IMG/VR virus record: IMGVR_UViG_3300042380_000159
Source of the DNA: an uncultured virus (IMG/VR IMGVR_UViG_3300042380_000159)
Lineage: Duplodnaviria; Heunggongvirae; Uroviricota; Caudoviricetes
Direction: 5' to 3' (one strand)
DNA length: 20,000 nucleotides
This document shows, piece by piece, positions 2,136 to 17,651 of the stretch (the stretch's first letter is position 1; the number at the start of each line of letters is the position of its first letter). The notes beneath the pieces are model-generated. The model was not told the origin of the DNA and made no database searches. It was given only the letters and a program-made list of their open reading frames with translations. The position numbers were made by a program, and so were the translations under genes.

Positions 2136-2746
2136 CGGTAGGTGCCCCACTTCATGGAATCAAGCAGGCTGCTCACGCCGAAGGGCACGTCCTGCGGGAC
2201 TGCCCCGGTGGAGACGGTCGCGCCACGGGTTTCGTACCAGTGGCTCACGAGCATCAGGATGGCGTGGCGGATCGCGGCGGGCACGTCGGTCCCGCTGGCC
2301 CCGTATCCAGCCCACCACGTCACGGCATGCGCCCCGGCGTCGATCCGGTGCGGCGGCCATGTGCCCGCATAGATGGGCAGCACGGTGCCCGGCGTCGATT
2401 GGCGATCTACGCGGAACTGCTCCACGGCATAGGTGCCGGTCGTGCCGCCGTCTGCCGTGAACGTGAGCGACACAGCCGTGGCCGTGCCAGCGACGGCCAT
2501 CGGCGGGCGGGGTAGTTCCATCGCCTCGATGCCCGACGTGGGGAATCGGTCGAACCTCATCACCCACTGCGTGTAGACCAGCGTGCGGTCTAGGTACTGC
2601 TCGCACCACTCGCGGGCTGCCGTGATGAGCGACGACACGTAGGCATCATCTGTGGTCGTGTCGATCCGGCAATGCGACTTCGCCTCGGAGAGCGTCACGG
2701 GCTCCACGGCGGGCGGCGTCTGGCGGCTGAGGCTGCGGTACTTCAC
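2132..2746 (-). CDS. Head-tail connector (gp6/gp15-like, phiE125 gp8 type)
   Basis: EPVTLSEAKSHCRID...LITAAREWCEQY...AGYG...VPAAIRHAILMLVSHWYETR. Confidence 0.92.
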   Translation of the reverse strand: MKYRSLSRQTPPAVEPVTLSEAKSHCRIDTTTDDAYVSSLITAAREWCEQYLDRTLVYTQWVMRFDRFPTSGIEAMELPRPPMAVAGTATAVSLTFTADGGTTGTYAVEQFRVDRQSTPGTVLPIYAGTWPPHRIDAGAHAVTWWAGYGASGTDVPAAIRHAILMLVSHWYETRGATVSTGAVPQDVPFGVSSLLDSMKWGTYR

Positions 2747-2943
2747 TTTCGCTTTCTCCGCTTGGGCGTGGCGTCGGCCGTCTCCACGTCGTGCTCGACG
2801 GCGGCCGTCTCGATCAACTCCTGCTGCCGGTCCTCCACCGCGAACCGCTTGGCGATCAGTTCCGCCGCCAAGCCGCCGGGGATCTCCACGACCTGGCCGG
2901 GGCGGTAGTTGCGGAACGATCGCAGCATCTTCAGTTTCGTCAT
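2743..2943 (-). CDS. Small capsid-region protein (66 aa)
   Basis: MTKLKMLRSFRNYRPGQVVEIPGGLAAELIAKRFAVE... with a basic tail; start and stop overlap both neighbours. Small genes of this type are common between capsid and connector. Confidence 0.75.
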   Translation of the reverse strand: MTKLKMLRSFRNYRPGQVVEIPGGLAAELIAKRFAVEDRQQELIETAAVEHDVETADATPKRRKRK

Positions 2944-3707
2944 TGAGGGACGCTCCATGCAGTTTCGGGCTTCGTCATCGTGTTGCAGTATTCCGTGGCG
3001 TGCTGATAGACGGGCTTGCCAAGGTCTTTGCCGGGCCATGTGAAGACGTACTCGCCGTGCCCAATGCACACCCGTGGCGTGACGAACACACGGTTTCCGC
3101 TCTCTCGCCAATTGACCCAGAATGCGATGTCGGCATCTCGCCGGGGTCGCCAGTTTGGATCGCCCGGCTTCCTCGGCTCTTCGTCCCATGTGCCGTCGCT
3201 GTTGGGCAGTTCCTGCATCCACGGAAGTTTGCACCGCTTCAGGGCGGCCGTGCTCAGGATGGTGCAGCCGAAGTGCGCTGTGTCCACTTCCTGGACCGGC
3301 TCGGCAAACCACTCCCTTGGCAGCGTTGTCGTGCCGCCCTCGGGCGGGTTGTCGAGCGTGCCTCGCAAGGTAAGCATCGGCCTGCCGTCCTCCCGCTTGG
3401 TTTGCAGCGGAGCGAGCGCGTCGCACTGGAACGTCATGGCCAGGGCGAACAACTGTTCGAGGTCGTCACGACTGAACGCGCTGTCGTAATCAATAACGAG
3501 CAGGTACTCGCATTTGTCTACGAACTTTTGGCAGACCCTCGACAGGCACTGGGACCAAAACGCCCCTTGCATCATCGTCGGCCGAATTCCTAGCGGCATG
3601 AGCGCCTGAGCCCATGTGTAGAAGTTTGACATGAACCCGAGCCGAGGGACGCTCATTACGGCTTCCACCCGAACGTCGGCTTCGGTTCCACCCACACGCA
3701 CGATCAT
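2940..3707 (-). CDS. GT-A fold glycosyltransferase-like protein
   Basis: YLLVIDYDSAF (hhhhDxD), HFGCTILS, DADIAFW and IGH motifs typical of GT2-like enzymes; ATG at 3707 preceded by GAGGT. Confidence 0.75.
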   Translation of the reverse strand: MIVRVGGTEADVRVEAVMSVPRLGFMSNFYTWAQALMPLGIRPTMMQGAFWSQCLSRVCQKFVDKCEYLLVIDYDSAFSRDDLEQLFALAMTFQCDALAPLQTKREDGRPMLTLRGTLDNPPEGGTTTLPREWFAEPVQEVDTAHFGCTILSTAALKRCKLPWMQELPNSDGTWDEEPRKPGDPNWRPRRDADIAFWVNWRESGNRVFVTPRVCIGHGEYVFTWPGKDLGKPVYQHATEYCNTMTKPETAWSVPQ

Positions 3708-5981: not shown

Positions 5982-7260
5982 CGGTGGAATCCTCCTGTTC
6001 GGCTTCATCCTCGGCGTCGTCGGCCGGGCTTTCCTCGTCCTCGACGGGCTGCGCTGGCATCGGCTCCGGTGCCGGTGCGTCCTGGCCAACCTTGTCGAGC
6101 GTGGTCATGTTGAGTTGCACGAAGTGCTTGTCGCCGTCTGGCCCAATCGGGTTCAGGTTCTCGGCCTCTCGTATTTCGTTGATCGTCATCCAGCCGTTTT
6201 GCAGGGCCGACACATAAAACGCCGCCCGGCTTGTGTGGTCACCCCGCAGCAGGCCGTTGACGTTGTGCTCCGCGAAATAGGTCTCATCGTCCACGATGAG
6301 GTCGCGGGAGATCGCCGCCTCCCACCGCTTGAGGTGCGGCAGCAGGCAATGCTGGACGAACTCCGTGCCTTGCACTTCGATGTTCGAGTAGGTGCTGCGG
6401 GTCAGGTCTTGGATCATGTGGGGCGGCACGCGGAACGCCCGGCAGATCTCAATCACTTGGTACTGCCGCGTTTCGAGGAACTGCGCCGCCTCATTGCTGC
6501 CGCTCAGTTCGTGGGCCTTCACGCCGTTGGGCAGGACCGCCGTGCGGAACGCACGATCTGCGCCCCGGTGCATCCGCTCCCACTGCTCGCGGAGCCGCTC
6601 GGCGGCCTCCACCGGAATCGGGTTGTCACTCTCCAGCACGATGCCCGGCCGGGCACCGTTGCCGAAGTAGGTGCTGCCGTGGGCCTCAAGAGCCTGGGCC
6701 AGCCCGATCGCGTTTTGGAAAATCTTGTATGTGGGGATCGCGCGAATCCCGTCCTCGGTCGTGAACCGCAGGGCGAAGATCTGGTCTTGGCTGTAGATCG
6801 TCTCGCGCCCGCTCGGCTCGCGATACCGATACCGCAGCGTCCCGTCAGACAGCCGCTCCACCTCCATCCGCGACGAGTGCAGCGGCCACAACTCCGAGAC
6901 GGCACCGCGAGCACCGGGGCGGATCTCGGCGTAGGACGCACCGTAATGCAAATACATTCCGGTCATCCAATCGCGGAACTCCTGCGCCGTCTGCCAGGGG
7001 TTCGGCTGCTGGTGGAGCAGGCGATACACGGGGTGGCTCGTGGCCTTCTGCTTGCCGCCGTTCGCCATCCGCTCGTAAACATGGAGCGGCAATGCGGAGA
7101 CGGCATCCGAGATCACGCGGATGCAGGCCGTGTAGGCCGAGCAGGCCATGCTGTTGTCGGCGTTGACGCGGATGCCCGAAGGCGTGCGAGACGGCGAAAC
7201 CTCGGGCCAGTCGATGCCACGCAAATCAAACATCCTGAAGTCGGCGGCGTTTTCGCTCAT
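5971..7260 (-). CDS. Portal protein, HK97 family
   Basis: ACIRVISDAVSALPL, HPVYRLLHQQPNPWQT, FGNGARP, ICRAFRVPPHMI, GWMTINEIREAENLNP; ATG at 7260 overlaps the TerL stop. Confidence 0.95.
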   Translation of the reverse strand: MSENAADFRMFDLRGIDWPEVSPSRTPSGIRVNADNSMACSAYTACIRVISDAVSALPLHVYERMANGGKQKATSHPVYRLLHQQPNPWQTAQEFRDWMTGMYLHYGASYAEIRPGARGAVSELWPLHSSRMEVERLSDGTLRYRYREPSGRETIYSQDQIFALRFTTEDGIRAIPTYKIFQNAIGLAQALEAHGSTYFGNGARPGIVLESDNPIPVEAAERLREQWERMHRGADRAFRTAVLPNGVKAHELSGSNEAAQFLETRQYQVIEICRAFRVPPHMIQDLTRSTYSNIEVQGTEFVQHCLLPHLKRWEAAISRDLIVDDETYFAEHNVNGLLRGDHTSRAAFYVSALQNGWMTINEIREAENLNPIGPDGDKHFVQLNMTTLDKVGQDAPAPEPMPAQPVEDEESPADDAEDEAEQEDSTDGN

Positions 7261-8825
7261 ATGCTCATGATGTCCCAGGATTGTTCGGGCGGCGGGGCCG
7301 TGGCCGTCGCGTGAATGCCGAGGGCCATCGTCAGCGCCACGATGCCGTCGATGCGTTCGTTGCTCTTCGCCTTGCTGGGCTTGATGTTTCCGGCGTGGTC
7401 CTGCTGAATCGCCACGTTCGACGCCTGCCACGCCAAGACGGGATGCCCGCCGTGGTGCAGTCGCCCCGCAACGCAGGCCGCCTCAAGGGCCTTCGCTGCG
7501 GAACTCATCGAACTGTAGCCTTGCCCAAAGCCTAAGACGTTGACCCCATCGCCTTGCAGTTGCGTCGCCAGCTGGGTCGCGTTCCAGCGGTCAATCGCCA
7601 CCTGCCGGATGTTGTATTTCTTGGTCAGAGCCATGATGTCGGCCCGCACCTGGTCGAAGTCGGTTACGTTGCCTTCCGTGAACTTAAGGTGGCCCTGCCG
7701 CTCCCAAGTGATATAGGGCACCTTGTCCCGCTTCTCGCGCTGGTGGGCGTTCTCACGTGGAATCCAGAAGTGTGGCTCCACCCAAAAGCTGCCGTCGTCC
7801 AACTGGAACAGCAGGCAGAAGCAGGTCGTGTCGAACGTGCTGGCGAGATCGAGGCCCGCGAAACACTCCCGACCGTCGAGCATCACCGGGCAGGGCTTGT
7901 TGCCCTGCGCCCACTTATCCATCTGGAGCCACCGGGTGCTCTGCTCCGTCCAACAATTCAAATAAAGCTGCTTGAAGGTGTTCTCGTATGAGGGCATCTC
8001 GACCGCCCTCGCGCATTCGCTACGCAGGAAGTCGAGCTTGATTGAGACGCCCAGATTCGGGTTTGCAGTGGCCCAAGTTTTTTCAGACTTCCAATCAGCG
8101 CCATCAGGGGCACAGTAGATTTCGGGCAGGAAGGTCTCGTCTTTGATTGCCCCCGCTTGCACCGCTTCGGCATATCGCCAGATCTCATAGCACACAGACC
8201 GGCGATCCCAGCCTGCCGTCGTGATGTAGATCATGAGCGGCTGCCGCCTTGCGCCCATGCTCGTTTGCATGACATCGGCCAGCTCGCGGTCTGGCTGGGC
8301 GTGCAGTTCGTCGAATATCACGCCGTGAGCGTTGAGCCCGTGCTTCGTGAACGCCTCAGCCGATAGCGCCTTGTAAAACGAGTGCGTATCCTCCCGCACG
8401 ATTGAGTTGCGATAGACCTTAAGCCGCGACCGCAGCGAAGGCGACATTTCCACGCACGCCTTTGCCATCTCGAACACCAAGCGTGCCTGCTCGCGGTCAG
8501 CCCCGCACGAAAATATCTGTGCGCCTGGCTCACCATCGAACAAAAGTTTGAGAGCAATCCCAGCGCACAGCGTGGATTTTCCGTTCTTGCGAGGCAGTGC
8601 CAGTAGGCTCGTGCGGTATTGGCGAAGGCCATCCGGCCGCAGCGTCCCAAAGAGCCGCCCGATGTAACTGGCCTGCCACGGCTCCAGGGCAAAAGGCTTG
8701 CCGCCGAGCTCGCCCTGCGTGTGCCGCAGATGCTTGGAAAAGAAATTGACCGCATCGACGCCAGCCTGGGCGTAGCTAGGCGAACATGCGGGCGTCTTCG
8801 TCGTCTTCTTGCGGGCCTTGGTCAA
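7257..8825 (-). CDS. terL: Terminase large subunit
   Basis: Walker A PRKNGKST, Walker B VIFDELH, ITTAG, nuclease motifs GLDLAST and RIDGIVA; the only plausible in-frame start is a TTG inside terS. Confidence 0.95.
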   Translation of the reverse strand: MTKARKKTTKTPACSPSYAQAGVDAVNFFSKHLRHTQGELGGKPFALEPWQASYIGRLFGTLRPDGLRQYRTSLLALPRKNGKSTLCAGIALKLLFDGEPGAQIFSCGADREQARLVFEMAKACVEMSPSLRSRLKVYRNSIVREDTHSFYKALSAEAFTKHGLNAHGVIFDELHAQPDRELADVMQTSMGARRQPLMIYITTAGWDRRSVCYEIWRYAEAVQAGAIKDETFLPEIYCAPDGADWKSEKTWATANPNLGVSIKLDFLRSECARAVEMPSYENTFKQLYLNCWTEQSTRWLQMDKWAQGNKPCPVMLDGRECFAGLDLASTFDTTCFCLLFQLDDGSFWVEPHFWIPRENAHQREKRDKVPYITWERQGHLKFTEGNVTDFDQVRADIMALTKKYNIRQVAIDRWNATQLATQLQGDGVNVLGFGQGYSSMSSAAKALEAACVAGRLHHGGHPVLAWQASNVAIQQDHAGNIKPSKAKSNERIDGIVALTMALGIHATATAPPPEQSWDIMSI

Positions 8826-9239: not shown

Positions 9240-9335
9240 TAAATCCTAACTTCCAATTTCAACCAAACGTACGCAGAGCAAACGACCGGGGTTTTTATTG
9301 GGCAAAGGTGGGGTGATTTGACCCGCCCTCCGCCG
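9240..9335 (-). other. Candidate cos/packaging-initiation region
   Basis: Lower-GC stretch at the HNH-terS junction containing GGGCGGGTCAAATC (9315-9328). HNH-P27 TerS phages typically place cos here. The exact cut site cannot be determined. Confidence 0.4.
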
Positions 9336-9708
9336 CCGAATTTCCCCGTCCGCCCGCAGAAAAAAGCGTGTTTTCGGCAGGTTTTTTGACTGTTTTTCTT
9401 TTTTCGGCTTCGTTTTGCTCGCGTCGCGTCTTCCTGCCGTGGCAAGCGATGCACAAGCATTGGCCGTTCGTTACGTCGTAACGCTCGCCTCCCAATGCGA
9501 CAGGTACAACGTGATCTGCGTGGTTAGAGTTGCATACAGTGCCGCAGGACCGGCAGGCCCACCCGTCACGGGTCAACACAGCCTGCCGCCATGCCCGGTG
9601 CCTCTTGTCGGTATAGCCCCGTGCATATGCGTTGGGCCGCCCTGCATCGTCGCGGCGTCGCGGGGGGCATAGCCTCGGCGGTATGTGGGGGGGGATACGT
9701 TGCGGCAT
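9295..9708 (-). CDS. HNH endonuclease (terminase-associated, HK97 gp74-like)
   Basis: CRSC...ADHVVPVALGGERYDVTNGQCLCIACHGRKT; immediately upstream of terS. Confidence 0.92.
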   Translation of the reverse strand: MPQRIPPHIPPRLCPPRRRDDAGRPNAYARGYTDKRHRAWRQAVLTRDGWACRSCGTVCNSNHADHVVPVALGGERYDVTNGQCLCIACHGRKTRREQNEAEKRKTVKKPAENTLFSAGGRGNSAAEGGSNHPTFAQ

Positions 9709-9803
9709 GGTGGGGGGGGTACTTCACGCACAAACGTGCATGCGTTCAGCCTATGCCTAGCGTCCAGTTGGCTTGCAGCCTTACATCGCCGCTATAGCGC
9801 ACT

Positions 9804-10118
9804 TCAGCCCGGCGGCTCGGGGAGCGGCATCCAGTGGGTGACTTGAAAGTTGCTGCGGCCTGGGGCCGAGAAGTACGCGGTTCCTGCTTCGGTGCTGAAG
9901 TTCAGCCATGCGAGCAAAAGGTCGCGGTACTCCGACACAAGCACCGTGTCACCAGCCTTCGGCAGCTCCTCGCTCACCGGAATCCATCGCGAACTAGCGG
10001 CAATGATTTCTGCCTTACACTCCATCAGCAGCTCTTCTGGAAACGGCACGTCCTCCCACCCTGCTGTCTCGCAGTCGGAAAGTTCTTTGTCGATCCGGGC
10101 AATGATGTCGCTTTCCAT
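9804..10118 (-). CDS. DUF551-domain protein
   Basis: RWIPVSEELP...VTHWMPLPEPP; ATG at 10118 preceded by GGAG. Confidence 0.85.
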   Translation of the reverse strand: MESDIIARIDKELSDCETAGWEDVPFPEELLMECKAEIIAASSRWIPVSEELPKAGDTVLVSEYRDLLLAWLNFSTEAGTAYFSAPGRSNFQVTHWMPLPEPPG

Positions 10119-10132
10119 GTCTCCACTTTCGC

Positions 10133-10348
10133 TCAGTAGCGCATTCCCTGCGACTTTTCCCATCGTCGCAGCCATGCGTGAAAGTTCTTCCACACTCCAG
10201 CGGGCGGGTTCTGGTTCCTCAGCGTTCTGCCGTCCTTCGCAACAAACAGCGGGCCGAACTGCATGGAGTAATCCCAACGCCACGTTCGCCCATTGTGACA
10301 GGTCGAACCGGATGCGGCGTGCCATGAGTCAATGAAGCAGCGTCCCAT
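10133..10348 (-). CDS. Hypothetical protein (71 aa)
   Basis: MGRCFIDSW...RTWRWDYSMQFGPLFVAKDG...; fills the gap between neighbours; AGGT upstream. Confidence 0.55.
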   Translation of the reverse strand: MGRCFIDSWHAASGSTCHNGRTWRWDYSMQFGPLFVAKDGRTLRNQNPPAGVWKNFHAWLRRWEKSQGMRY

Positions 10349-10371
10349 GTCTTTACCTGATTTCAGTAGCG

Positions 10372-10563
10372 TCACCGAATGTGCGTCAGCCCCATCATCG
10401 CCGCCAACTCGCCAGGATCGGTCGGCGTGGATCGCGGCTCCGCCAGGGCGACGATGCACCGCTCCATGCGGGCGATGTCCTCGCGGGCCTTCTCCTGCCA
10501 CGCCTCAAGCTCTTTGATGCGGTTTTGCAGGAGCTCGGTTCGATACTGTGCGTGAGCGTCCAT
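10372..10563 (-). CDS. Hypothetical coiled-coil protein (63 aa)
   Basis: Strong RBS AAGGAGG; LLQNRIKELEAWQEKAREDIARMERCI heptad pattern. Confidence 0.65.
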   Translation of the reverse strand: MDAHAQYRTELLQNRIKELEAWQEKAREDIARMERCIVALAEPRSTPTDPGELAAMMGLTHIR

Positions 10564-10617
10564 CTGTCCCTCCTTGCGGCGTGTTGTGCAACTATCCGGC
10601 AATTCCGGTGGGTTCGC

Positions 10618-10836
10618 TCATACCAGCAAACTCGTCAATTCGTAAGGAATCAACGCCCGTACTTCTTCCAGAATTCTCTCCAACTCTGGCGTCGGCTCGC
10701 CGCGATTGAGGACGGCCCGACAGCGGTTGTCGATCAGCTCCAGCGCGATCAGCGCCTCGCGGCCCGCGAGGGCATAGCGATGCTCGCGGGCGTCGTCGGG
10801 GTCAGCGAGGTCGAACTTCAGGAGAGCGTGTGCCAT
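10618..10836 (-). CDS. Hypothetical protein (72 aa)
   Basis: MAHALLKFDLADPDDAREHRYALAG...; GC-rich coding-like composition next to an AT-rich spacer. Confidence 0.7.
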   Translation of the reverse strand: MAHALLKFDLADPDDAREHRYALAGREALIALELIDNRCRAVLNRGEPTPELERILEEVRALIPYELTSLLV

Positions 10837-11050
10837 GTATAGCGAGGTTACTACGGTTTATCCCGGTTTATCAGTTTCCGATAACTTTGGCCCAGATTGT
10901 ATCCGAACTCATACGGAAAGCGTATCGTTTTCGATATGTTTCGGGCATCCTATTTTGGGAATATTGCCCCTCACGCAATTATCGCGAAATACAAAACCCA
11001 GGTACTTGTGTCGAACTACCGAGCCTTCGCTCTTCTGGTGCTATAGCGCA

Positions 11051-11497
11051 CTAACAGCGAAACGGCTTCACCTTCTCCTGCCATGTGACAATCAGATGGC
11101 GCGTGGCGTCGTCGGCGTACTCCATCGTCGTGATGTCGAACTTGCCATCAGTCTCCACGCCAAGCGCGGCCGGATGCCGCTTGTCGTAAATGCCGTCAGG
11201 AAGGCTCACGCTTTCTCGTTGGGGCAGGCCCTTGTGGCGGTATTCGACCTTGTAGCCTTCGTCAGCCTCCTCAACCGCGACCGGATAAAAGTCACCCAGC
11301 CGCTCCACAAGCAGGGCCGTCAACCTTCCGCCAGTTGGCTGGTGGGCATCATAGGCGCAGGTAAAGGCCAGTTGCGCCCGGTCGAAGTCATGCTCGGAAA
11401 TCTTCCCGGCACAGAGGTCAAGAGCCGCCTGCATGATGTATTCGCGGCACTGGTCGGCTTGCTCAACCGATCCTCGTCCGACGCAAACGTACCCCAT
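11051..11497 (-). CDS. Hypothetical protein (148 aa)
   Basis: ATG at 11497 preceded by AAGGAAGGT; acidic globular-looking sequence. Confidence 0.65.
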   Translation of the reverse strand: MGYVCVGRGSVEQADQCREYIMQAALDLCAGKISEHDFDRAQLAFTCAYDAHQPTGGRLTALLVERLGDFYPVAVEEADEGYKVEYRHKGLPQRESVSLPDGIYDKRHPAALGVETDGKFDITTMEYADDATRHLIVTWQEKVKPFRC

Positions 11498-11585
11498 GAG
11501 ATCACCTTCCTTTCGGGGCGTGATTCTACCCGGCTGGCAAGCGGGCGCAATGCCTTTTCCGACCGTCTCTAAGGTGGATAGCGCA

Positions 11586-12194
11586 CTACATCGCCGCCAG
11601 TAGCGGAAGGTCGATAGCCGCGCCCCATTGCTCGGCCATAGCTCTGGCAATCCCTTCGTATGTCTTGCTTCTGATCTTCCAGCGGTCGGGCGACGGGGCC
11701 AGCTTGTTCTGCCCGCTCGCGGTCTGGTTCTCCCACCTATCCCGATGCTCAAGGACGCTGGTGGGCCGCAGGGGTGGCAATCCCTTCAGCCAGAGACAGG
11801 TGGCCTTCGACTCTGGGTGGCCGAACTGCCAAGGCTGAATGGTCTGGTCGGGCTTCCGCCAGAGCGATGACATGATGCAGACCGGGTTTTCAATGGCGAT
11901 ATGCGGAATGTCGGCCTTCGCCAGCCGCATGAAAAACGACACGCTCGCCTGCTGCCTGCCGTCCATCCGCTTCGCCTGGAAGTGCCTAGCACCGCTCACC
12001 GACAGGTCGGTGCATGGCGGATGGGCAATCATCAAATCCCAAGGGTAGTCCAGAACGTCACGAACGTCGCCTTGGTAGTGCGGGCCTGGCGTCTCGGTGG
12101 GCAGGAGATCGCACGACATAGCCTCATGCCCAAGAGCCAAGAAGGCGTCTCGGACGCTGCCGCTGTATTCGCAGGCGATGAGTACCCGTGCCAT
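11586..12194 (-). CDS. Short DNA cytosine-5 methyltransferase-like protein
   Basis: VLIACEYSG (variant motif I), SCDL, AHPPCT (catalytic PC), IENP (motif VI), KATCLW, C-terminal RSKTYEGIARAMAEQW. Confidence 0.8.
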   Translation of the reverse strand: MARVLIACEYSGSVRDAFLALGHEAMSCDLLPTETPGPHYQGDVRDVLDYPWDLMIAHPPCTDLSVSGARHFQAKRMDGRQQASVSFFMRLAKADIPHIAIENPVCIMSSLWRKPDQTIQPWQFGHPESKATCLWLKGLPPLRPTSVLEHRDRWENQTASGQNKLAPSPDRWKIRSKTYEGIARAMAEQWGAAIDLPLLAAM

Positions 12195-12238
12195 TTCCCG
12201 AGCCTACGCGCATAGCCAAATCTGGCAACAGCATTTCC

Positions 12239-12257
12239 GAGAGCGAATTGCGCTCTC
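12239..12257. promoter_or_regulatory. Intergenic hairpin at the island boundary
   Basis: Perfect 7-bp inverted repeat GAGAGCG-aattg-CGCTCTC; no clear U-tract, function unknown. Confidence 0.4.
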
Positions 12258-12275
12258 TTGTGGGTGTACGGCAAC

Positions 12276-12593
12276 TCAGCCGATAGGCGGGTCGGGCGGC
12301 AGCATCGCCACCGCATCGGCCCACGGGATCACTTCCACGCTTGCCCCTAGCACGGCCTTGTCGGCCGCTTCCCACATGGCATGGAGCAGGCCGCCGGGTT
12401 CGATCTCGGTCAGAATGTCCGCACACAGCATGAGCCGCCCATCGGTCAGCGTGCGCGGGACCGGAACGCAGTTGGGCGAGCCGTGGCTCGCGTGCAGTTC
12501 CGCTAGCCGGGCCGCAAGCGCGGGAGTGAACACCAGGGCGTACCCCTTGGCGGCCTCGTAGGAGATCGGGAGCGTGAGGTCTGCGAGCGTCAT
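12276..12593 (-). CDS. Hypothetical protein, possibly a fibre-associated chaperone
   Basis: TAATG coupling to the upstream gene; PRTLTDGRLMLCADILTE; follows the fibre genes. Confidence 0.7.
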   Translation of the reverse strand: MTLADLTLPISYEAAKGYALVFTPALAARLAELHASHGSPNCVPVPRTLTDGRLMLCADILTEIEPGGLLHAMWEAADKAVLGASVEVIPWADAVAMLPPDPPIG

Positions 12594-13465
12594 TAGTTGC
12601 GCCCCAGTGCTGTCTGAAAGGCCACGACCGCCGACGAGAACGCTGCCGCCTGCGAGGCCGTGAACGACGTTCCGATGGAATAGCCTTGCAGGGTGGCCGC
12701 AAGAAACTGGTCGCCGGTATTGCCGCTGTCGGCGCGATTGCGGGCAAACACCGATGGAGCGCCTGGGCTTGTGACCGACCAGTTATTCGTGTTGGTCATG
12801 CTCACGGCGAGGTTGAGGTCAACGCCGTTCCGGTAGACCTTCGCATCGTTGTTGGTTCGCTGGCACAGAAGGTGGCCGGAACGGTTTGCCCCCGACCATG
12901 CTGCACCTTCGATGCCGCAGTTACTGGCACCACCAGAGCGGTAGTAGATGAGATTTAGGCCGCCGAAAGTTAGTGCGCCAAAGGTGGCCTGCGCTGTTTG
13001 GCCGCCGAATGTGGAGAGCGGCGAATTGTTCGCCGTGATCTGGGCGCGTGAGTACCAAGAGCAATGCGTATCCGTGTGCGAGATGCCAGCCGCCACCATA
13101 TCCATGCCGGTCTGTAGCCGCTTGTTGCTGCCGTTGCCGGTCAGCCCGCCCGTCGTGCCCGTCTCAACGTAATCGCCCGCCACGAAGTTGCTGTTCGTGT
13201 CGATGGTGTTGCCGAACTGCGTCCCGCCGAGCGATGTTCCGCGATAGAGCGGGACGAGAGCCGCCGCGAGGCCGGTGCCACAAAATAAGTTCACGCGGGA
13301 CAGTCGTGAGCGGATGCCTGCCGTATCAACCGCCCGGCAGAAGGTTTCAACCGCCGCGAAGGTTGAAGCCGATACGGTGCCGCCGTTGGCGATGACGCGG
13401 GTCCGCCAACTTGCGGCCTCGGGGTGGGCCGTCGCTCGGAAGTAGCCGATCTTGCCTGCGAGCAT
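12593..13465 (-). CDS. Putative virion beta-sandwich (LamG/ConA-like) protein
   Basis: ATG overlaps the fibre TAA; Gly/Thr/Asn-rich; KVYRNGV and YSIGTSFTASQAAAF resemble LamG C-terminal motifs. Confidence 0.55.
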   Translation of the reverse strand: MLAGKIGYFRATAHPEAASWRTRVIANGGTVSASTFAAVETFCRAVDTAGIRSRLSRVNLFCGTGLAAALVPLYRGTSLGGTQFGNTIDTNSNFVAGDYVETGTTGGLTGNGSNKRLQTGMDMVAAGISHTDTHCSWYSRAQITANNSPLSTFGGQTAQATFGALTFGGLNLIYYRSGGASNCGIEGAAWSGANRSGHLLCQRTNNDAKVYRNGVDLNLAVSMTNTNNWSVTSPGAPSVFARNRADSGNTGDQFLAATLQGYSIGTSFTASQAAAFSSAVVAFQTALGRN

Positions 13466-15564
13466 TAGAAGTTTTGCGCCGCTGTGCCGTACCAGTTCGT
13501 GCCGTCTGAGACGAACACCAAGATGTCGCGCTTGTTGCTCGTCGCCGTGATCGTCGGCGCGGTGCCTCCCGCCCACAGGACGGAAGTGAACGTCGCCGTG
13601 AACGTCCCGCCCTGAGTCAAAATGAGCGTGATCGAAGCCCCAGCGGTCGGGCTGGGCATCGTGAATGCGCAGTTGCCCGAGAGCGTCACGGTCTGCACGG
13701 AGCCGGTGGTCAGGGCCAGCGTGGTCGATGTGCCGCTGTTGCCCACCGTTTGCGTCTGCTCAAGGACGACGGGCAGGCGGGCGAGGGCGACGGTGCCGGT
13801 GGTGATGTCAGCCCCGGAGTGGACGTGCGCCGTGGGCGTCCTCGCGTCACTGAGCCGGGCGTCATTCGCCGCGACGAAATCCGTCGTTGCCGCTGCCGCT
13901 GCGGTGCCGAGCGTGGGGCGGCCCGTGAGGTCCGAATAGGCTCCTGTCCTGCCTGCCGTGGAAATGCCGCTGCCGATCAGATCGGTTCCGGCACGATCCG
14001 GGTAGACATCGCTCTGCGTTGCAAACGTCCAATAGCCAGCGTTCGTGCCGCCGCCCTTGTAGCGGCTTGCCTTCACCCACTCGCTTTCGGTGGGAAGCCG
14101 ATACTTCGCGCCAGCGTTGGCCGCAATCACGACGTTCGATGCGGTAATCGTGTAGGCACCGTCCTCGGTCGTGGAAGATGACTGAGCGCCGGTCGGCTTG
14201 CCGTTATGCAGCCAGTTGCAGTAGCGCACGGACGCATACCAAGTAACAAAATTTACCGGCTTGTTGCGTGCGTTCGCCCGTGCGGCGTAGGTGAACGAGC
14301 CCGACGAGCCACTTCGCGTGATGCCGCCAGCGGCATCTGTTCCCATCCGCGTGTCATACAGGCCGTTCGTGTCGGTGGCCGCCACAGCGTTCAGGAAGGC
14401 GACATACTCCGCGTTCGTGACGGCGTAGCGGCCGATGCGGTACTCATAGGCAACGCCGCCGACGCCGCTCGCGCTGTTCGCGTTGCCGACATCCCCAACG
14501 GTGACGAACCCGCCGTATCCGTTGGCGTCTGACGGCGATGCGACGCGAAACCCGACGTTGGTAAATCGGTTCGTCGGTGATACCGCGATGCCGTCCCAGA
14601 CATAGGTAATCGGGTACGTTCCGCCTTCGCCATCCGACAAGTACGAGCCGCCACGCATCATCGACAGCGACGGGTTGTCGCGAGCCGCGCCGCCGAACGT
14701 GCCGATCCACTCCTCCAGGTTGCCGTGCTGGTCGAACGTGCCGTAGTAGCTGGGACGCCCCGTCGTGCCGACCGCAAACGGGCCGGGATTTTGGCCGTAG
14801 TTGGCCGAATTGCCGAGCAGGTAGCGGGCGTCCAGCGAGGCCGTGAGTCCGACCACCTCTTGTGCGCTATGCGTATGAGAGACGGCAGCCGCCCCGATGT
14901 CGGCGGCCGTAAGGGCGTCAGAGCCGCCCGTGGCGTGGGTGCTCTTGTGGGCCGCCAGGGCGAGCGAGCCGCTCGAGGTCGTGAGGCCGGAGCCGATCGA
15001 CAGTGCCACCGTCTGCGTGCCGGAGTTGTAGGTCACTGGAGCAGTCGCCGCGACGACGCCCGATGGGCCTTGTGGCCCCGTCGCCCCTGTGGCTCCTGTC
15101 GCGCCGGTAGCGCCCGTCGCGCCGGTAGGACCGGTCGGACCTGCCGGGCCTTGGTCGCCAGTGTCACCCTTTGGCCCTTGCGGACCGGTAGCACCAGTCG
15201 CCCCCGCAGGGCCTTGAGGTCCGATGTCGCCTTGATCGCCCTTTGGTCCCTGCGGCCCCTGCGGTCCAGTGGCACCGGTCGCGCCTGTGGAGCCCGTCGC
15301 GCCCGCTGGGCCTTGCAAGCCAACGTCGCCCTGGTCGCCCTTCGGGCCTTGCGGGCCGGTGGCTCCAGTTGCGCCGGTCGGGCCTGCCACGCCTTGCGGT
15401 CCCTGCGGACCTTGTGGACCGGCCGGGCCTTGCTCGCCCTGCGGACCCTGCGGGCCAGCGGCACCGCTCGGGCCAAAGCCACCGCTTACCGTGGCGTCGA
15501 TCTTGGTCTCGCCCACGCTCGCCGTGATCTGCTGCCCGCCGCTGACGTTCGCATTGATCGGCAC
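13465..15564 (-). CDS. Collagen-like fibre protein with an FGE-sulfatase/CLec-fold domain
   Basis: About 46 Gly-X-Y triplets, HxH shaft motifs, FGE-family motifs ([44 protein letters not shown]) and a beta-rich C-terminal domain. Confidence 0.85.
15061..15474 (-). repeat. Collagen Gly-X-Y coding repeat
   Basis: Uninterrupted GPQ/GAT/GPK/GDQ triplets over 138 aa. Confidence 0.95.
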
Positions 15565-15878
15565 TACAGCACCTCCACGAATCCGGTGAGGGCGGTACGG
15601 GTGGCGTTGTTCTCAGTCCACCGCATCTGCCACCCGTAGGTGCCACGGGCCAGGGCGGCCGTCTGCGTGTCGGTGAGGCTCACGTTCACCTGCCCGGCCG
15701 TGGCCGAGACGAACGACACGGTGAGCGGCTGCACCTCGGCACCGCTGACGAGCGACGTGATGCCAGCCGTGACGGTGTACGAGGCCAGCGAAATGGAGAA
15801 GTCAACCAGTGCGCTGAAATCGTCACCTCTCTTGAACGAGAGGCCCAGCGTGCCGGGTGTTTGGTCGTAGGAGGACAT
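15564..15878 (-). CDS. Hypothetical Ig-like/BppU-N-like structural protein
   Basis: LSFKRGDDF...[24 protein letters not shown]...[14 protein letters not shown] coupling to the fibre gene. Confidence 0.65.
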
Positions 15879-16148: not shown

Positions 16149-16486
16149 CGCCGCATCTCCGTCTGCCACCCTACCAATGCAATGCGATTGCTGGCAGTTT
16201 TGAGCCACCACGCCAGGATCGCTTTGACGATCTCTTGAATGAGCACGCCCAGCACGAGCGAGAGGATGATGCCCATGCGGACGTTCTGCCGTTCGCTCCG
16301 CTCAATGCTCGCGGCCACCTGTTCGAGCATGACGCCGTAGCCCTCGGGCCGGGCCTGCGAGATCGCCACCGTGGGCCACTTGCGGACGACGCGCCGCACC
16401 AGGCGGGAGACGAGGGCTTTCCCGGCAAGGTGCTTCCTAGCCGAGAGGCTGGACCACACGGCGGCGTCGAGGTCTTCGAGGCTCAT
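16145..16486 (-). CDS. Hypothetical membrane protein
   Basis: Hydrophobic segment MGIILSLVLGVLIQEIVKAILAWW; ATGA overlaps at both ends. Confidence 0.7.
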   Translation of the reverse strand: MSLEDLDAAVWSSLSARKHLAGKALVSRLVRRVVRKWPTVAISQARPEGYGVMLEQVAASIERSERQNVRMGIILSLVLGVLIQEIVKAILAWWLKTASNRIALVGWQTEMRR

Positions 16487-16743
16487 TTGGCCACCTTCTT
16501 TCCGGTGCCTTTGCAGACGGGGCAGGTCATCACAATCCGGCCGTCACCGATCTTGCCGGTGCCGTCGCAGTTGTCGCAGTTGTCGCTCTTCGGGGCGGGG
16601 GCCATCTCCTGCTTCAACTTCTCAGCCATGCGGGCCGTCTCGCAGGCGAGATCCGCCACGATGTCGGGATGGTCAGGCTGCACCACGCCGCAGCTGGGCA
16701 CGCCCAGGAGCATCACGCCGGTGACGAGGGCCGCCGTCTTCAT
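16483..16743 (-). CDS. Signal-peptide/lipoprotein-like protein with a DnaJ-type zinc finger
   Basis: MKTAALVTGVMLLGVPSC leader; CDNCDGTG and CPVCKGTG; ATGA overlap with the peptidase stop. Confidence 0.75.
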   Translation of the reverse strand: MKTAALVTGVMLLGVPSCGVVQPDHPDIVADLACETARMAEKLKQEMAPAPKSDNCDNCDGTGKIGDGRIVMTCPVCKGTGKKVAK

Positions 16744-17651
16744 AGAACGCCTCCGGTCCAATCGGGGAGCGTGCGGGGCGGGAAGCCTGCGTAGCCACTC
16801 AGGGCAAAGGAGTCTTCGCCCGATAGCATCGACGTGCAGGTGGCGGCCTCGACCCATCCGGCCGACTTCTGGAACTGCGGCGGGAGGTTCTGGTCTACGC
16901 TGCCCGAGTAGCAGTCGCCCCACGAGTTCACGCACAGCAGGGCGGGCTTCGGGCTCCACCGCACACCGGCAAACATCATGCAGTGAGCCCACTGGCCCAT
17001 CGGCGTGAGGTAGCCATCGCGGAGCGTCATGGAGAATCCACGCATGGAGCACACGGCCACGGGGTAGCCGTTCTGGATCGCACGGGCGGCATCCTCAAAC
17101 GTCTTCACCAGGGCCACGCTCGAAACCTTGTGCTTCGCGGCGAACGGCTCGAACCGATCAGGCACACCGTCGCGGCCCCATTCGCGTTCACGCTGCCCCG
17201 AGTTGTCGGTGAACGCCACGCCGTCGTAGTTCACGCCGTAGTGCAGCGTCCCGTAGTTCGTCACGGCCTTCGCCGCCGCGCCGCCATAGGAACCGTCGCC
17301 CCCGAGGTTGCGGCCACCGCGAACCTCGACGCGGGAAAAGGCGTAGATGCTGGCTTCGAGCACACGCCCGCCGTAACTCTCCCGCTCGTTTCGCAGGAGA
17401 ATGTCGCAAGCCGCGAGGATGTCGCACGACAAGGCCCAGCCCCAGCCGACGCACGAGCCGATCTTCTGGGCTCCACGCTTCCAATCGGGGGCCACCTTGA
17501 GCAGGTAGTGCCCGAGGTTCACGTCTTTGCGCTCGTCGAGCACCAGGTCGGGGCCAGCCTGTGCGAGCGTCGGCCGGGCGAGCGTCGCCAGGAAGTCGTC
17601 GGTGCCCTTCCGGTCGGGCTGGTAGCCCATTAAGGGGATGAAGTCGGCCAC
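16740..17651 (-). CDS. Papain-like (C1) cysteine peptidase
   Basis: QKIGSCVGWG (oxyanion Gln and catalytic Cys), AHCM (His), VNSWG (Asn). Confidence 0.88.
   Translation of the reverse strand: MADFIPLMGYQPDRKGTDDFLATLARPTLAQAGPDLVLDERKDVNLGHYLLKVAPDWKRGAQKIGSCVGWGWALSCDILAACDILLRNERESYGGRVLEASIYAFSRVEVRGGRNLGGDGSYGGAAAKAVTNYGTLHYGVNYDGVAFTDNSGQREREWGRDGVPDRFEPFAAKHKVSSVALVKTFEDAARAIQNGYPVAVCSMRGFSMTLRDGYLTPMGQWAHCMMFAGVRWSPKPALLCVNSWGDCYSGSVDQNLPPQFQKSAGWVEAATCTSMLSGEDSFALSGYAGFPPRTLPDWTGGVL

Follow-up and report, generated by a model that had tools for sequence, protein, structure and literature searches.

In the targets of diversity-generating retroelements (DGRs), hypervariable ligand binding in phages and bacteria is built mainly on the FGE-type C-type-lectin (CLec) fold. 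CLec-fold DGR targets carry their variable region in a stretch homologous to residues 289-338 of the protein described below. Variable protein 1 of Treponema denticola (TvpA, PDB 2Y3C) puts the same fold family to a non-enzymatic, ligand-binding use, and its residues 183-292 are what we take to be its variable region. FGE itself has its catalytic cysteine pair after the RGGS motif, in the C-terminal half of the fold. A second group of described systems comprises the collagen-like phage tail fibres (phrog_819, 5073, 6320, 366, 1806), in which a long G-X-Y region is followed by non-collagen C-terminal parts.

The locus analysed here lies in a window of 20,000 nucleotides, the whole stretch of DNA examined, from an uncultured virus. 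It encodes a 699-residue protein, P0001, in which the two groups meet. The G-X-Y triple-helix region that marks the collagen-like fibres is present, and Pfam Collagen (PF01391) matches it in three stretches (E 9.9e-19). The PHROG tail-fibre families match P0001 at E values from 1e-34 to 2e-19, none stronger than 1e-34 and mainly through the collagen part. Embedded behind this region is a domain of the FGE-sulfatase/CLec fold whose two halves are in swapped order. Profile comparison and structure prediction confirm it as a circular permutant of that fold, predicted to fold as one rigid unit. The coordinates of the features are collected in the table.

Features of the fibre gene and its neighbours (positions in the window; residues are those of P0001)
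Feature	Residues	Positions	Strand	Basis or remark
Upstream gene, 104 aa (P0346)		15564..15878	-	stop overlaps fibre start; phrog_1084 (unknown function), E 1.9e-10
Fibre gene, 699 aa (P0001)		13465..15564	-	ORF list and translation; GTG start overlaps stop of upstream gene
Collagen-like region	28-171	15052..15483	-	48 G-X-Y triplets, uninterrupted (regex count)
Putative first shaft segment	172-248	14821..15051	-	HKSTH (206), HTH (230); SHTH at 229
FGE-sulfatase/CLec-fold domain, circularly permuted (287 residues)	249-535	13960..14820	-	hhalign, AlphaFold2, VIA-align
C-half of canonical fold, placed first (motif string of 28 protein letters)	249-343	14536..14820	-	Pfam, SUMF2 alignment, hhalign, model
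Most variable stretch of the family, between EEW and GFR	289-338	14551..14700	-	column entropy, 71-sequence alignment
Linker PSDANGYGG	344-352	14509..14535	-	connects canonical C-terminus to canonical N-terminus
N-half of canonical fold, placed second (motif string of 43 protein letters)	353-535	13960..14508	-	Pfam, hhalign, model
Second shaft segment	536-590	13795..13959	-	HVH-type motif (10 protein letters) at 573
Tail-fibre-type C-terminal tip domain	591-699	13468..13794	-	phrog_9017 'tail fiber protein', E 2.3e-8
Downstream gene, 290 aa		12593..13465	-	ATG overlaps fibre stop (TAATG); sequence read

From its N-terminus to its C-terminus, the fibre would consist of a short anchor, a collagen helix of 48 triplets, an H-x-H shaft, a knob of 287 residues, a second shaft and a tip of the tail-fibre type. 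The N-terminus aligns to the N-termini of the relatives P0006 and P0007. Residues 172-248 may serve as a shaft; H-x-H segments resembling them flank the permuted domain in P0006, P0007, P0025 and P0041. The positions of the motifs in P0001 bear out the proposal of the first-pass annotation that the domain sits between two fibre segments with H-x-H motifs. The second of these segments is matched by phrog_21962 ('tail protein', E 9.9e-9, residues 2-84 of the C-terminal piece). For the tip, the ESM Atlas offered the 'phage tail fibre C-terminal domain' PF26209 as a lead (score 0.93); a Pfam scan of residues 546-699 gave zero matches. The fibre is taken as trimeric because of its collagen region. 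A homotrimer prediction with three copies of residues 240-560 scored 0.07 against a mark of 0.42, which weighs neither for nor against a trimer.

All the motifs quoted in the first-pass annotation are present in the order it gave, in a single open frame of the minus strand, and the domain limits found here, 13960-14820, fall within 5 bases of its 13965-14815. The C-half comes first, with SANYG at residue 253, a motif of 13 protein letters at 274, RGGSY at 304 and GFRVAS at 338. It is followed by the N-half, with FVTVGDVGN at 353, YEYRIG at 373, VTNAEY at 382, KPVNFVTW at 435 and YRLPTESEW at 488. PF03781 matches the whole protein with 65.5 bits, above its cut-off of 23.3 bits, and does so in two partial matches, as the annotation had predicted, that depart from the collinear order of N-half before C-half. 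Residues 260-342 correspond to profile positions 163-254 and precede residues 374-509, which correspond to positions 36-129. When the halves are scanned alone, the N-half scores 53.4 bits (E 3.9e-14) and the C-half 20.6 bits (E 3.8e-4), the latter below the cut-off. The halves are likewise reversed in a phmmer comparison with SUMF2 (1y4j), in which the C-half aligns to SUMF2 192-267.

The assignment was carried further by hhalign, in which a profile of 71 swapped-order sequences was compared with one of 26 canonical relatives. Query positions 102-285 match template positions 27-211 (E 2.5e-92, probability 100) and query positions 2-102 match template positions 215-311 (E 4.8e-27, probability 99.7). 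The two matches do not overlap, jointly cover the domain and meet at query position ~102, where template position 311 is connected to template position 27. The two swapped segments cover the full canonical domain, with nothing lost. On the canonical chain, the distance between the new termini is 3 residues, and the 9-residue linker bridges the canonical ends. The chain begins in the loop before the ANY..YG.YD..GN..EW..RGGS..GFR half, continues to the canonical C-terminus and through the linker to the canonical N-terminus (FVTVGD.GN), and stops after YW.(Y/F)ATQSD. The agreement of the two profile matches and the domain limits is far beyond chance. A search of the PDB sequences with the swapped-order profile (hmmsearch) retrieved 20 sequences of the FGE family (best E 3.3e-10), and all four of the alignments printed were in reversed order. 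NCBIfam contains no model for the permuted domain, and PHROG gives the domain a single match, phrog_18508 ('kinase'), on the N-half.

One might suppose that the fibre retains two remnants of a tandem array in decay, the end of one FGE domain and the start of the next, which serve as a degenerate or flexible spacer instead of forming one domain. Many canonical tandem proteins do occur among the close relatives, with the query collinear across their internal junctions, and the C-half was predicted with low confidence (pLDDT 40-68) in a first AlphaFold2 model based on 23 sequences. With the deeper alignment of 71 sequences, however, the domain is predicted as one folded unit with a mean pLDDT of 89.4 and a pTM of 0.91, in the monomer prediction that the first-pass annotation had proposed as a check. 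Moreover, the swapped-order unit is conserved over its whole length, both halves having invariant residues; it stands alone in proteins of ~310 residues and ends proteins cleanly; and the cut falls at the gap of 3 residues on the canonical chain, no part of which is missing. A tandem remnant is accordingly quite improbable. The swap claimed in the annotation is that of a true circular permutant, predicted by hhalign, AlphaFold2 and VIA-align to form one unit.

A comparison of the model with 48,161 chains by VIA-align placed 12 FGE-sulfatase-fold proteins (SUMF1/EgtB/PvdO-type) and two CLec-fold proteins, TvpA and Mtd, in the top 14 rows. The Z scores of 5-6 are middling on the scale of the tool, and sequential aligners match one half per row. 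Model residues 100-285, the N-half, match the N-terminal parts of CarF (Z 6.1), ToxD (5.7), TvpA (5.4), PorK (5.4), EgtB (5.1), SUMF2 (4.9) and PvdO. Model residues 1-96, the C-half, match residues 334-442 of EgtB-IV (Z 5.1) and, more weakly, the C-terminal parts of Mtd and TaqVP. Foldseek returned no match at E <= 0.001 for the first model in the PDB or for the second model in BFVD, which is read as a limit of the method, since the fold is permuted and contains little regular secondary structure.

For the family at large, 344 retrieved proteins were mapped with half-domain queries. The C-half comes first in 140 of them, a number to be read with the retrieval in mind: the swapped-order form is over-sampled because a query of that form was used to collect the homologs. 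Units consisting of a C-half and then an N-half occur once in 92 of these 140 proteins, twice in 25 and three times in 8; canonical two-unit tandem forms account for 51 of the 344. The closest relatives show 58-72% identity and the same order of halves (P0006 72%, P0231 71%, P0007 69%). The annotation had proposed a search of viromes for homologs with the same order; relatives are encoded in 269 stretches of viral contigs, and all 74 of the loci listed match collinearly. To judge by these contigs, the permuted domain is a large, mostly viral family and its form is common in uncultured phages, a known fold that has been rewired. No permuted form of cellular origin was found among the five genome-contig loci examined: in L082, L085, L091, L109 and L144 the match seemed to span both halves, and all five proved canonical.

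The source of the sequence, an uncultured viral contig, raises the question of whether the swapped order could stem from misassembly or from a chimera. The chance of this is next to nil, since the same order recurs in independent relatives from several sources (P0006, P0007, P0231) as well as in the listed viral loci, and the frame of P0001 is open and collinear with its relatives across the entire protein. The novelty suggested for the architecture survives in part. In the literature searched, no published description of the permuted domain was found; the terms 'circularly permuted' and 'permutation' refer to other proteins or to the order of DGR cassettes in PMC8195603, PMC7824862, PMC3521204 and PMC12724379. 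The architecture is, however, not peculiar to this fibre, given the size of the mostly viral family that shares it.

The idea that the permutation serves insertion into the middle of a fibre was not borne out in this form, and the re-orientation of the RGGS..GFR surface that the annotation also proposed is conjectural. The domain lies at the C-terminus in 76 of the 91 further proteins that contain a single swapped-order unit, and 44 of the 91 are essentially stand-alone proteins (~310 residues). Flanks of more than 100 residues on each side of the unit, as in P0001, occur in only 7. Many relatives terminate ~20 residues past the N-half, and the C-terminal limit of the P0001 domain was set by relatives that end directly after it. 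Since the canonical ends lie 9 residues apart and the new ends 3, the termini are close together in both forms, and insertion into a shaft would be possible for either. None of these 91 proteins contains at least eight consecutive G-X-Y triplets. Few proteins in the sample combine collagen with the permuted domain; a further one is L176, where the order differs.

The closest relatives outside the permuted lineage are canonical FGE-sulfatase proteins of Planctomycetota, Verrucomicrobiota and similar MAGs, with 49% identity over the N-half. They occur in single and tandem forms (e.g. P0313, P0302 and loci L082 and L144) and share with the fibre domain a set of motifs of 21 protein letters and GFR. 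In contrast to the fibre domain, their N-half precedes the C-half, they begin with signal-peptide-like sequences, and they are cellular and not viral. In a tree of the N-halves (205 rows), built with FastTree only, only 3 changes of the label 'C-first' are required. A single branch with a support of 95 separates 57 N-first rows and 1 C-first row from 138 C-first and 9 N-first rows. Given the abundance of tandem forms and the grouping of the permuted ones on the tree, an origin by duplication and loss is proposed: the permuted lineage would have arisen from secreted bacterial relatives by tandem duplication, after which the outer half-domains were lost. With canonical, tandem and permuted forms still extant, the family would offer a clean natural case of permutation by duplication.

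What the knob does may be approached through its cysteines. The domain has a single one, residue 449, which belongs to the N-half. Residues 249-343 have none, and the family consensus of the C-half stretch is likewise free of cysteine. The pair that follows RGGS in SUMF1-type FGE is absent. We infer that the knob has no enzymatic role, since its cysteine-free C-half offers no counterpart to the catalytic pair, and, like SUMF2, it is probably non-catalytic. FGE/SUMF1 and its paralogue SUMF2 (PDB 1Y1E, 2AFT, 1Y4J) and the FGE-like domains of EgtB, PvdO, CarF, ToxD and PorK match it structurally with Z 4.6-6.1. In contrast to them, the fibre domain is permuted and resides in a phage fibre; its C-half also lacks the cysteines of FGE.

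The variability of the family is concentrated in one stretch. In the 71-sequence alignment, entropy reaches 2.5-2.8 bits in four of the five ten-residue blocks of residues 289-338 (289-298 and 309-338) and 1.75 bits in the RGGSY block (299-308); elsewhere it is 0.6-1.8 bits. Residues 289-338 align to the C-terminal stretch of TvpA, residues 183-292. The structural correspondence extends to the individual proteins: model residues 96-284 match TvpA 53-241 (Z 5.4), residues 1-101 match Mtd (1YU0) 151-380 (Z 3.5) and residues 3-97 match TaqVP (5VF4) 134-381 (Z 2.9). As in these three proteins, the variable stretch lies in the homologous C-half; unlike in them, the halves are swapped, and the stretch is near the start of the domain and in the middle of the protein instead of at its C-terminus. 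The knob, free of the catalytic pair, would be a lectin-like binding module that helps the virion to recognise a ligand on the host surface. Its specificity surface would be formed by residues 289-338, in the manner of the CLec-fold variable proteins of DGRs. Binding function, ligand and host are all putative.

The position of residues 289-338, where CLec-fold DGR targets have their variable region, could also mean that the domain is itself, as TvpA and Mtd are, a DGR target, whose variable region has come to lie inside the protein. Unlike the TvpA, TaqVP and Mtd systems, the 20-kb window contains neither of the two elements that define a DGR variable protein: it has no repeat resembling a template for any part of the domain, and its scanned ORFs gave no match to a reverse-transcriptase family. 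The repeats within the fibre gene consist of the collagen periodicity and one 31-nt pair with 71% identity, which is at chance level. When 157 loci were screened in a crude way for pairs of adenine-biased repeats, 6 such pairs turned up in 3 loci, and none of them lay over a permuted-domain match. We therefore hold a DGR target to be most improbable. The reading that we favour, and consider likely, is that of a phage fibre with a permuted FGE/CLec knob as a putative lectin-like binding module, from a lineage that goes back to a tandem duplication. More tentatively, and with slightly more doubt than trust, the swapped fold may be a distinct, essentially phage-specific class of receptor-binding domains. 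It would have a single origin by duplication and trimming from secreted bacterial lectin-like proteins, and its new ends would let phages bead it at the start, middle or end of a fibre, alone or in tandem. Its specificity surface would vary by ordinary divergence and not by retroelement mutagenesis.

Annotation with profiles sees half-matches and mislabels permuted proteins as 'formylglycine-generating enzyme', so that the receptor-binding proteins of many uncultured phages may be overlooked. The domain boundaries given here enable expression of the module for the identification of ligand and host. For the source phage, P0001 is a candidate host-recognition protein in which both knob and tip are putative binding parts. 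A scan of genome and metagenome contigs for close relatives of the fibre as a whole found none with more than ~60% identity outside the collagen part, and tblastn against 50,697 phage records gave one weak match, with 28% identity over residues 371-511.

The genomic setting is that of a phage, in which the fibre gene is upstream of methyltransferase, DUF551, HNH, terS and terL genes. P0346, encoded upstream, shows a weak match to phrog_3304 ('L-shaped tail fiber protein assembly', E 7.6e-4) and none in the Pfam and NCBIfam scans; the 290-residue product of the downstream gene was assigned to no family in PHROG, Pfam or NCBIfam. Tail genes are expected after the tail terminator at the opposite end of the window, which places the tail module outside the 20 kb. 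The label 'tail fibre' is not secured because the gene is upstream of the methyltransferase, HNH and terminase genes and not in a visible tail module. The permuted binding domain could instead belong to a head or neck fibre or to a surface protein that is expressed during lysogeny from an accessory ('moron'-type) cluster. Such a cluster would account for the place of the fibre gene and its two small neighbours away from the expected tail genes, and the 'tail fibre' scores of PHROG derive mostly from the collagen repeats. This alternative is unlikely, although the least so of those considered. The C-terminal 164 residues alone match tail-fibre and tail-protein PHROGs (E 1e-8 to 2e-8), the ESM Atlas lead points to a tail fibre, and relatives of the permuted unit occur in giant tail-fibre-like viral proteins, such as the 2308-residue protein of L003. 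The DNA of the collagen region carries a family of direct repeats with a period of 9 nt.

Two profile-profile matches identify the domain of the 699-residue fibre protein P0001 as a circular permutant of the FGE-sulfatase/C-type-lectin (CLec) fold, in which the whole fold is kept and the canonical ends are bridged by a linker. The alignment A2, comprising 71 sequences with the C-half of the canonical fold followed by the N-half (swapped order), was compared with 26 canonical single-domain relatives. Positions 102-285 of the swapped-order profile corresponded to canonical positions 27-211 (probability 100, E 2.5e-92) and positions 2-102 to canonical positions 215-311 (probability 99.7, E 4.8e-27), which places the new chain ends at canonical positions three residues apart and excludes a single collinear profile match. 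The first-pass annotation had claimed such a permutation, and the claim holds, with the fold complete; the motifs it quoted were all found in the order claimed, in one minus-strand frame.

Features of the fibre gene and its surroundings (positions of genes in the window, of motifs in the fibre protein)
Feature	Position	Strand	Remarks
Fibre gene	13465-15564	minus	one open frame, 699 residues
C-half motifs	SANYG 253, [13 protein letters not shown] 274, RGGSY 304, GFRVAS 338		first in domain
Linker PSDANGYGG	residues 344-352		between C-half and N-half
N-half motifs	FVTVGDVGN 353, YEYRIG 373, VTNAEY 382, KPVNFVTW 435, YRLPTESEW 488		last in domain
Flanking motifs	HKSTH 206, SHTH 229; [10 protein letters not shown] 573		first two before domain, third after
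290-aa gene	12593-13465	minus	directly after fibre, TAATG overlap
189-aa ORF	16483-17052	minus	weak C-terminal CXXC zinc-finger-type matches
terL	7257-8825	minus	
Fibre cluster	within 9295-15878		

Searches with single sequences and family models gave the same reversed order. PF03781 matched the whole fibre in two stretches with 65.5 bits (cut-off 23.3). Scanned alone, residues 240-352 corresponded to model positions 163-254 (E 3.8e-4; 20.6 bits, by itself under the cut-off) and residues 353-545 to positions 36-129 (E 3.9e-14), the two reversed partial matches that had been anticipated. In a phmmer search of PDB sequences, the first part aligned with residues 192-267 of SUMF2 and the second with residues 79-149. 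Of the PDB sequences, 20 from the FGE family matched the 71-sequence profile at E <= 0.01; all four of the alignments printed showed the halves reversed.

A first AlphaFold2 model of residues 240-560, built from 23 sequences, was of middling quality (pLDDT 72, pTM 0.77), its C-half being weak; a second, of residues 249-535 from 71 sequences, reached a mean pLDDT of 89.4 and a pTM of 0.91, all five models being at 85 or higher. The top 14 rows of a VIA-align search of 48,161 PDB representatives were FGE-fold and related lectin-fold proteins. With Z-scores that are middling by the tool's own scale, and one half per row because the aligner is sequential, the N-half (model residues ~100-285) matched the N-terminal regions of CarF (Z 6.1), ToxD (5.7), TvpA (5.4), PorK (5.4), EgtB (5.1), SUMF2 (4.9) and PvdO (4.6), and the C-half (residues 1 to ~100) matched the C-terminal regions of EgtB-IV (Z 5.1, rmsd 3.0, 90 aligned residues), Mtd (Z 3.5) and TaqVP (Z 2.9). 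Foldseek searches with the domain models gave no match.

Relatives of the domain numbered 7,948 cluster representatives at E <= 1e-3 and, among 8,000 candidates scored, 6,011 proteins at E <= 1e-10 and 157-503 aa. When the query halves were mapped separately onto 344 retrieved proteins, the N-half came first in 204, including 26 canonical single-domain and 51 canonical two-domain tandem proteins, and the C-half in 140, among them 92 with one swapped-order unit (query included), 25 with two and eight with three. A 2308-aa protein encoded on a 20.7-kb viral contig (L003, 6257-13180) has three permuted units, the first from residue 34. The swapped halves might be the remnant of a decayed tandem, but three observations argue strongly against this. 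Stand-alone or nearly stand-alone proteins (<= 60 residues on either side) make up 44 of the 91 other one-unit proteins; in many C-first proteins the C-half starts 15-45 residues from the N-terminus and the protein ends about 20 residues past the N-half. The order is kept in relatives with 58-72% identity (P0006, P0007, P0231, P0024, P0025, P0038, P0041). Finally, relatives are encoded by 269 IMG/VR stretches, and all 74 loci among the matches listed are collinear with the query between residues ~17 and ~285. The shared order in these relatives and IMG/VR loci also excludes a misassembly of the contig.

Duplication followed by trimming is the classical route to circular permutation. A FastTree phylogeny was calculated from 205 N-half sequences: all 91 one-unit swapped-order and all 26 canonical single-domain rows, with random subsamples of canonical two-unit (40 of 97), swapped-order two-unit (30 of 44) and swapped-order three-unit rows (18 of 24). 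On this unrooted tree, obtained by a quick method from sets retrieved with a swapped-order query, the label C-first requires only three changes, and a branch with support 95 has 57 N-first rows and one C-first row on one side and 138 C-first and nine N-first rows on the other. The query lies in a starred clade of eight one-unit swapped-order rows. Together with the abundant canonical tandem relatives, the tree fits an origin of the permutation, once or a few times, through duplication and trimming. All five representative-genome loci with matches seeming to span both halves were canonical, no cellular permuted form being found among them. In P0302, P0313, P0296 and other closest canonical relatives, a signal-peptide-like N-terminus leads straight into IDWVTVGD. 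No such N-terminus is seen in the permuted proteins, several of which open with phage-like motifs.

The idea that permutation enables insertion into the fibre shaft is not supported. The domain is C-terminal in 76 of the 91 other one-unit proteins and embedded, as in the fibre, in only seven; since the termini are adjacent in the permuted form as in the canonical one, either could be inserted. A re-orientation of the putative binding surface by the permutation is plausible. What is particular to the fibre is the pairing of the permuted domain with a collagen helix: residues 28-171 form 48 uninterrupted G-X-Y triplets (Pfam Collagen, E 9.9e-19), and none of the 91 other one-unit proteins has eight or more consecutive triplets. 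The mid-shaft site between H-x-H segments and the small HK97-type head-gene neighbourhood are unusual. In the metagenome contig L176 (2712-5136), a permuted unit at 2712-3449 is followed downstream by the remaining match to fibre residues 31-544, to 5136, which suggests a putative collagen-like part after the permuted unit, the opposite of the fibre studied here. Pfam, NCBIfam and PHROGs contain no model for the permuted domain, and full-text literature searches found no description of it; it appears undescribed, as had been claimed.

The domain contains one cysteine, residue 449 in the N-half. The C-half, where the catalytic cysteine pair of FGE presumably sits, has none, and the family consensus is without cysteine in the catalytic-pair stretch of the alignment to human FGE (2AFT); judged by these residues, the domain is not an FGE-type enzyme. 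Variability in the family peaks at residues 289-338, between EEW and GFR, where column entropy is 2.5-2.8 bits in four of five ten-residue blocks and 1.75 bits in the RGGSY block, compared with 0.6-1.8 bits elsewhere. The C-terminal part of TvpA, which we take to be its variable ligand-binding region, is homologous to this stretch. The variation seems to arise from ordinary divergence, since the window contains no template-like repeat, the ORFs scanned matched no reverse-transcriptase family, and no adenine-biased repeat over a permuted domain came up when 157 loci were crudely scanned. Beside a collagen-like match on a Eubacteriales MAG contig (L137), a 74-nt repeat pair (11711-11784 and 12223-12296) has all 13 of its mismatches at adenines of one copy and looks like a DGR template/variable pair. 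The collagen region suggests that the fibre would be a trimer, with a lectin-like knob spliced into its shaft and a distinct tip domain; binding is presumed throughout.

The window is phage DNA. Tail-fibre and tail-protein PHROGs match the C-terminal 164 residues of the fibre (E 1e-8 to 2e-8), for which the ESM Atlas points to a 'phage tail fibre C-terminal domain' (0.93). On the minus strand, small unknown genes are followed by a 104-aa gene (phrog_1084), the fibre gene and the 290-aa gene, the last three with overlapping stops and starts, and then by genes for DNA methyltransferase, DUF551, HNH, terS, terL, portal, protease, major head protein, adaptors, neck and tail terminator. Downstream of the head and neck genes would be the expected place for a tail module. 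Because the fibre cluster precedes the methyltransferase, DUF551, HNH and packaging genes, outside any visible tail module, an appendage other than a tail fibre is kept as a rival to the tail fibre to which the C-terminal matches point. PHROG, Pfam and NCBIfam searches gave no family for the 290-aa protein, which bears at its N-terminus a W..RV.ANGG.VS motif, presumably one known from other phage structural proteins. The matches of the 189-aa ORF, to the DnaJ central domain and anti-TRAP, were all under curated cut-offs. In a comparison with 50,697 phage records, terL has its best matches, at only 47-49% identity, in phages of gut Firmicutes (Lachnospiraceae, Blautia, Faecalimonas); the G+C content of the window is about 64%.
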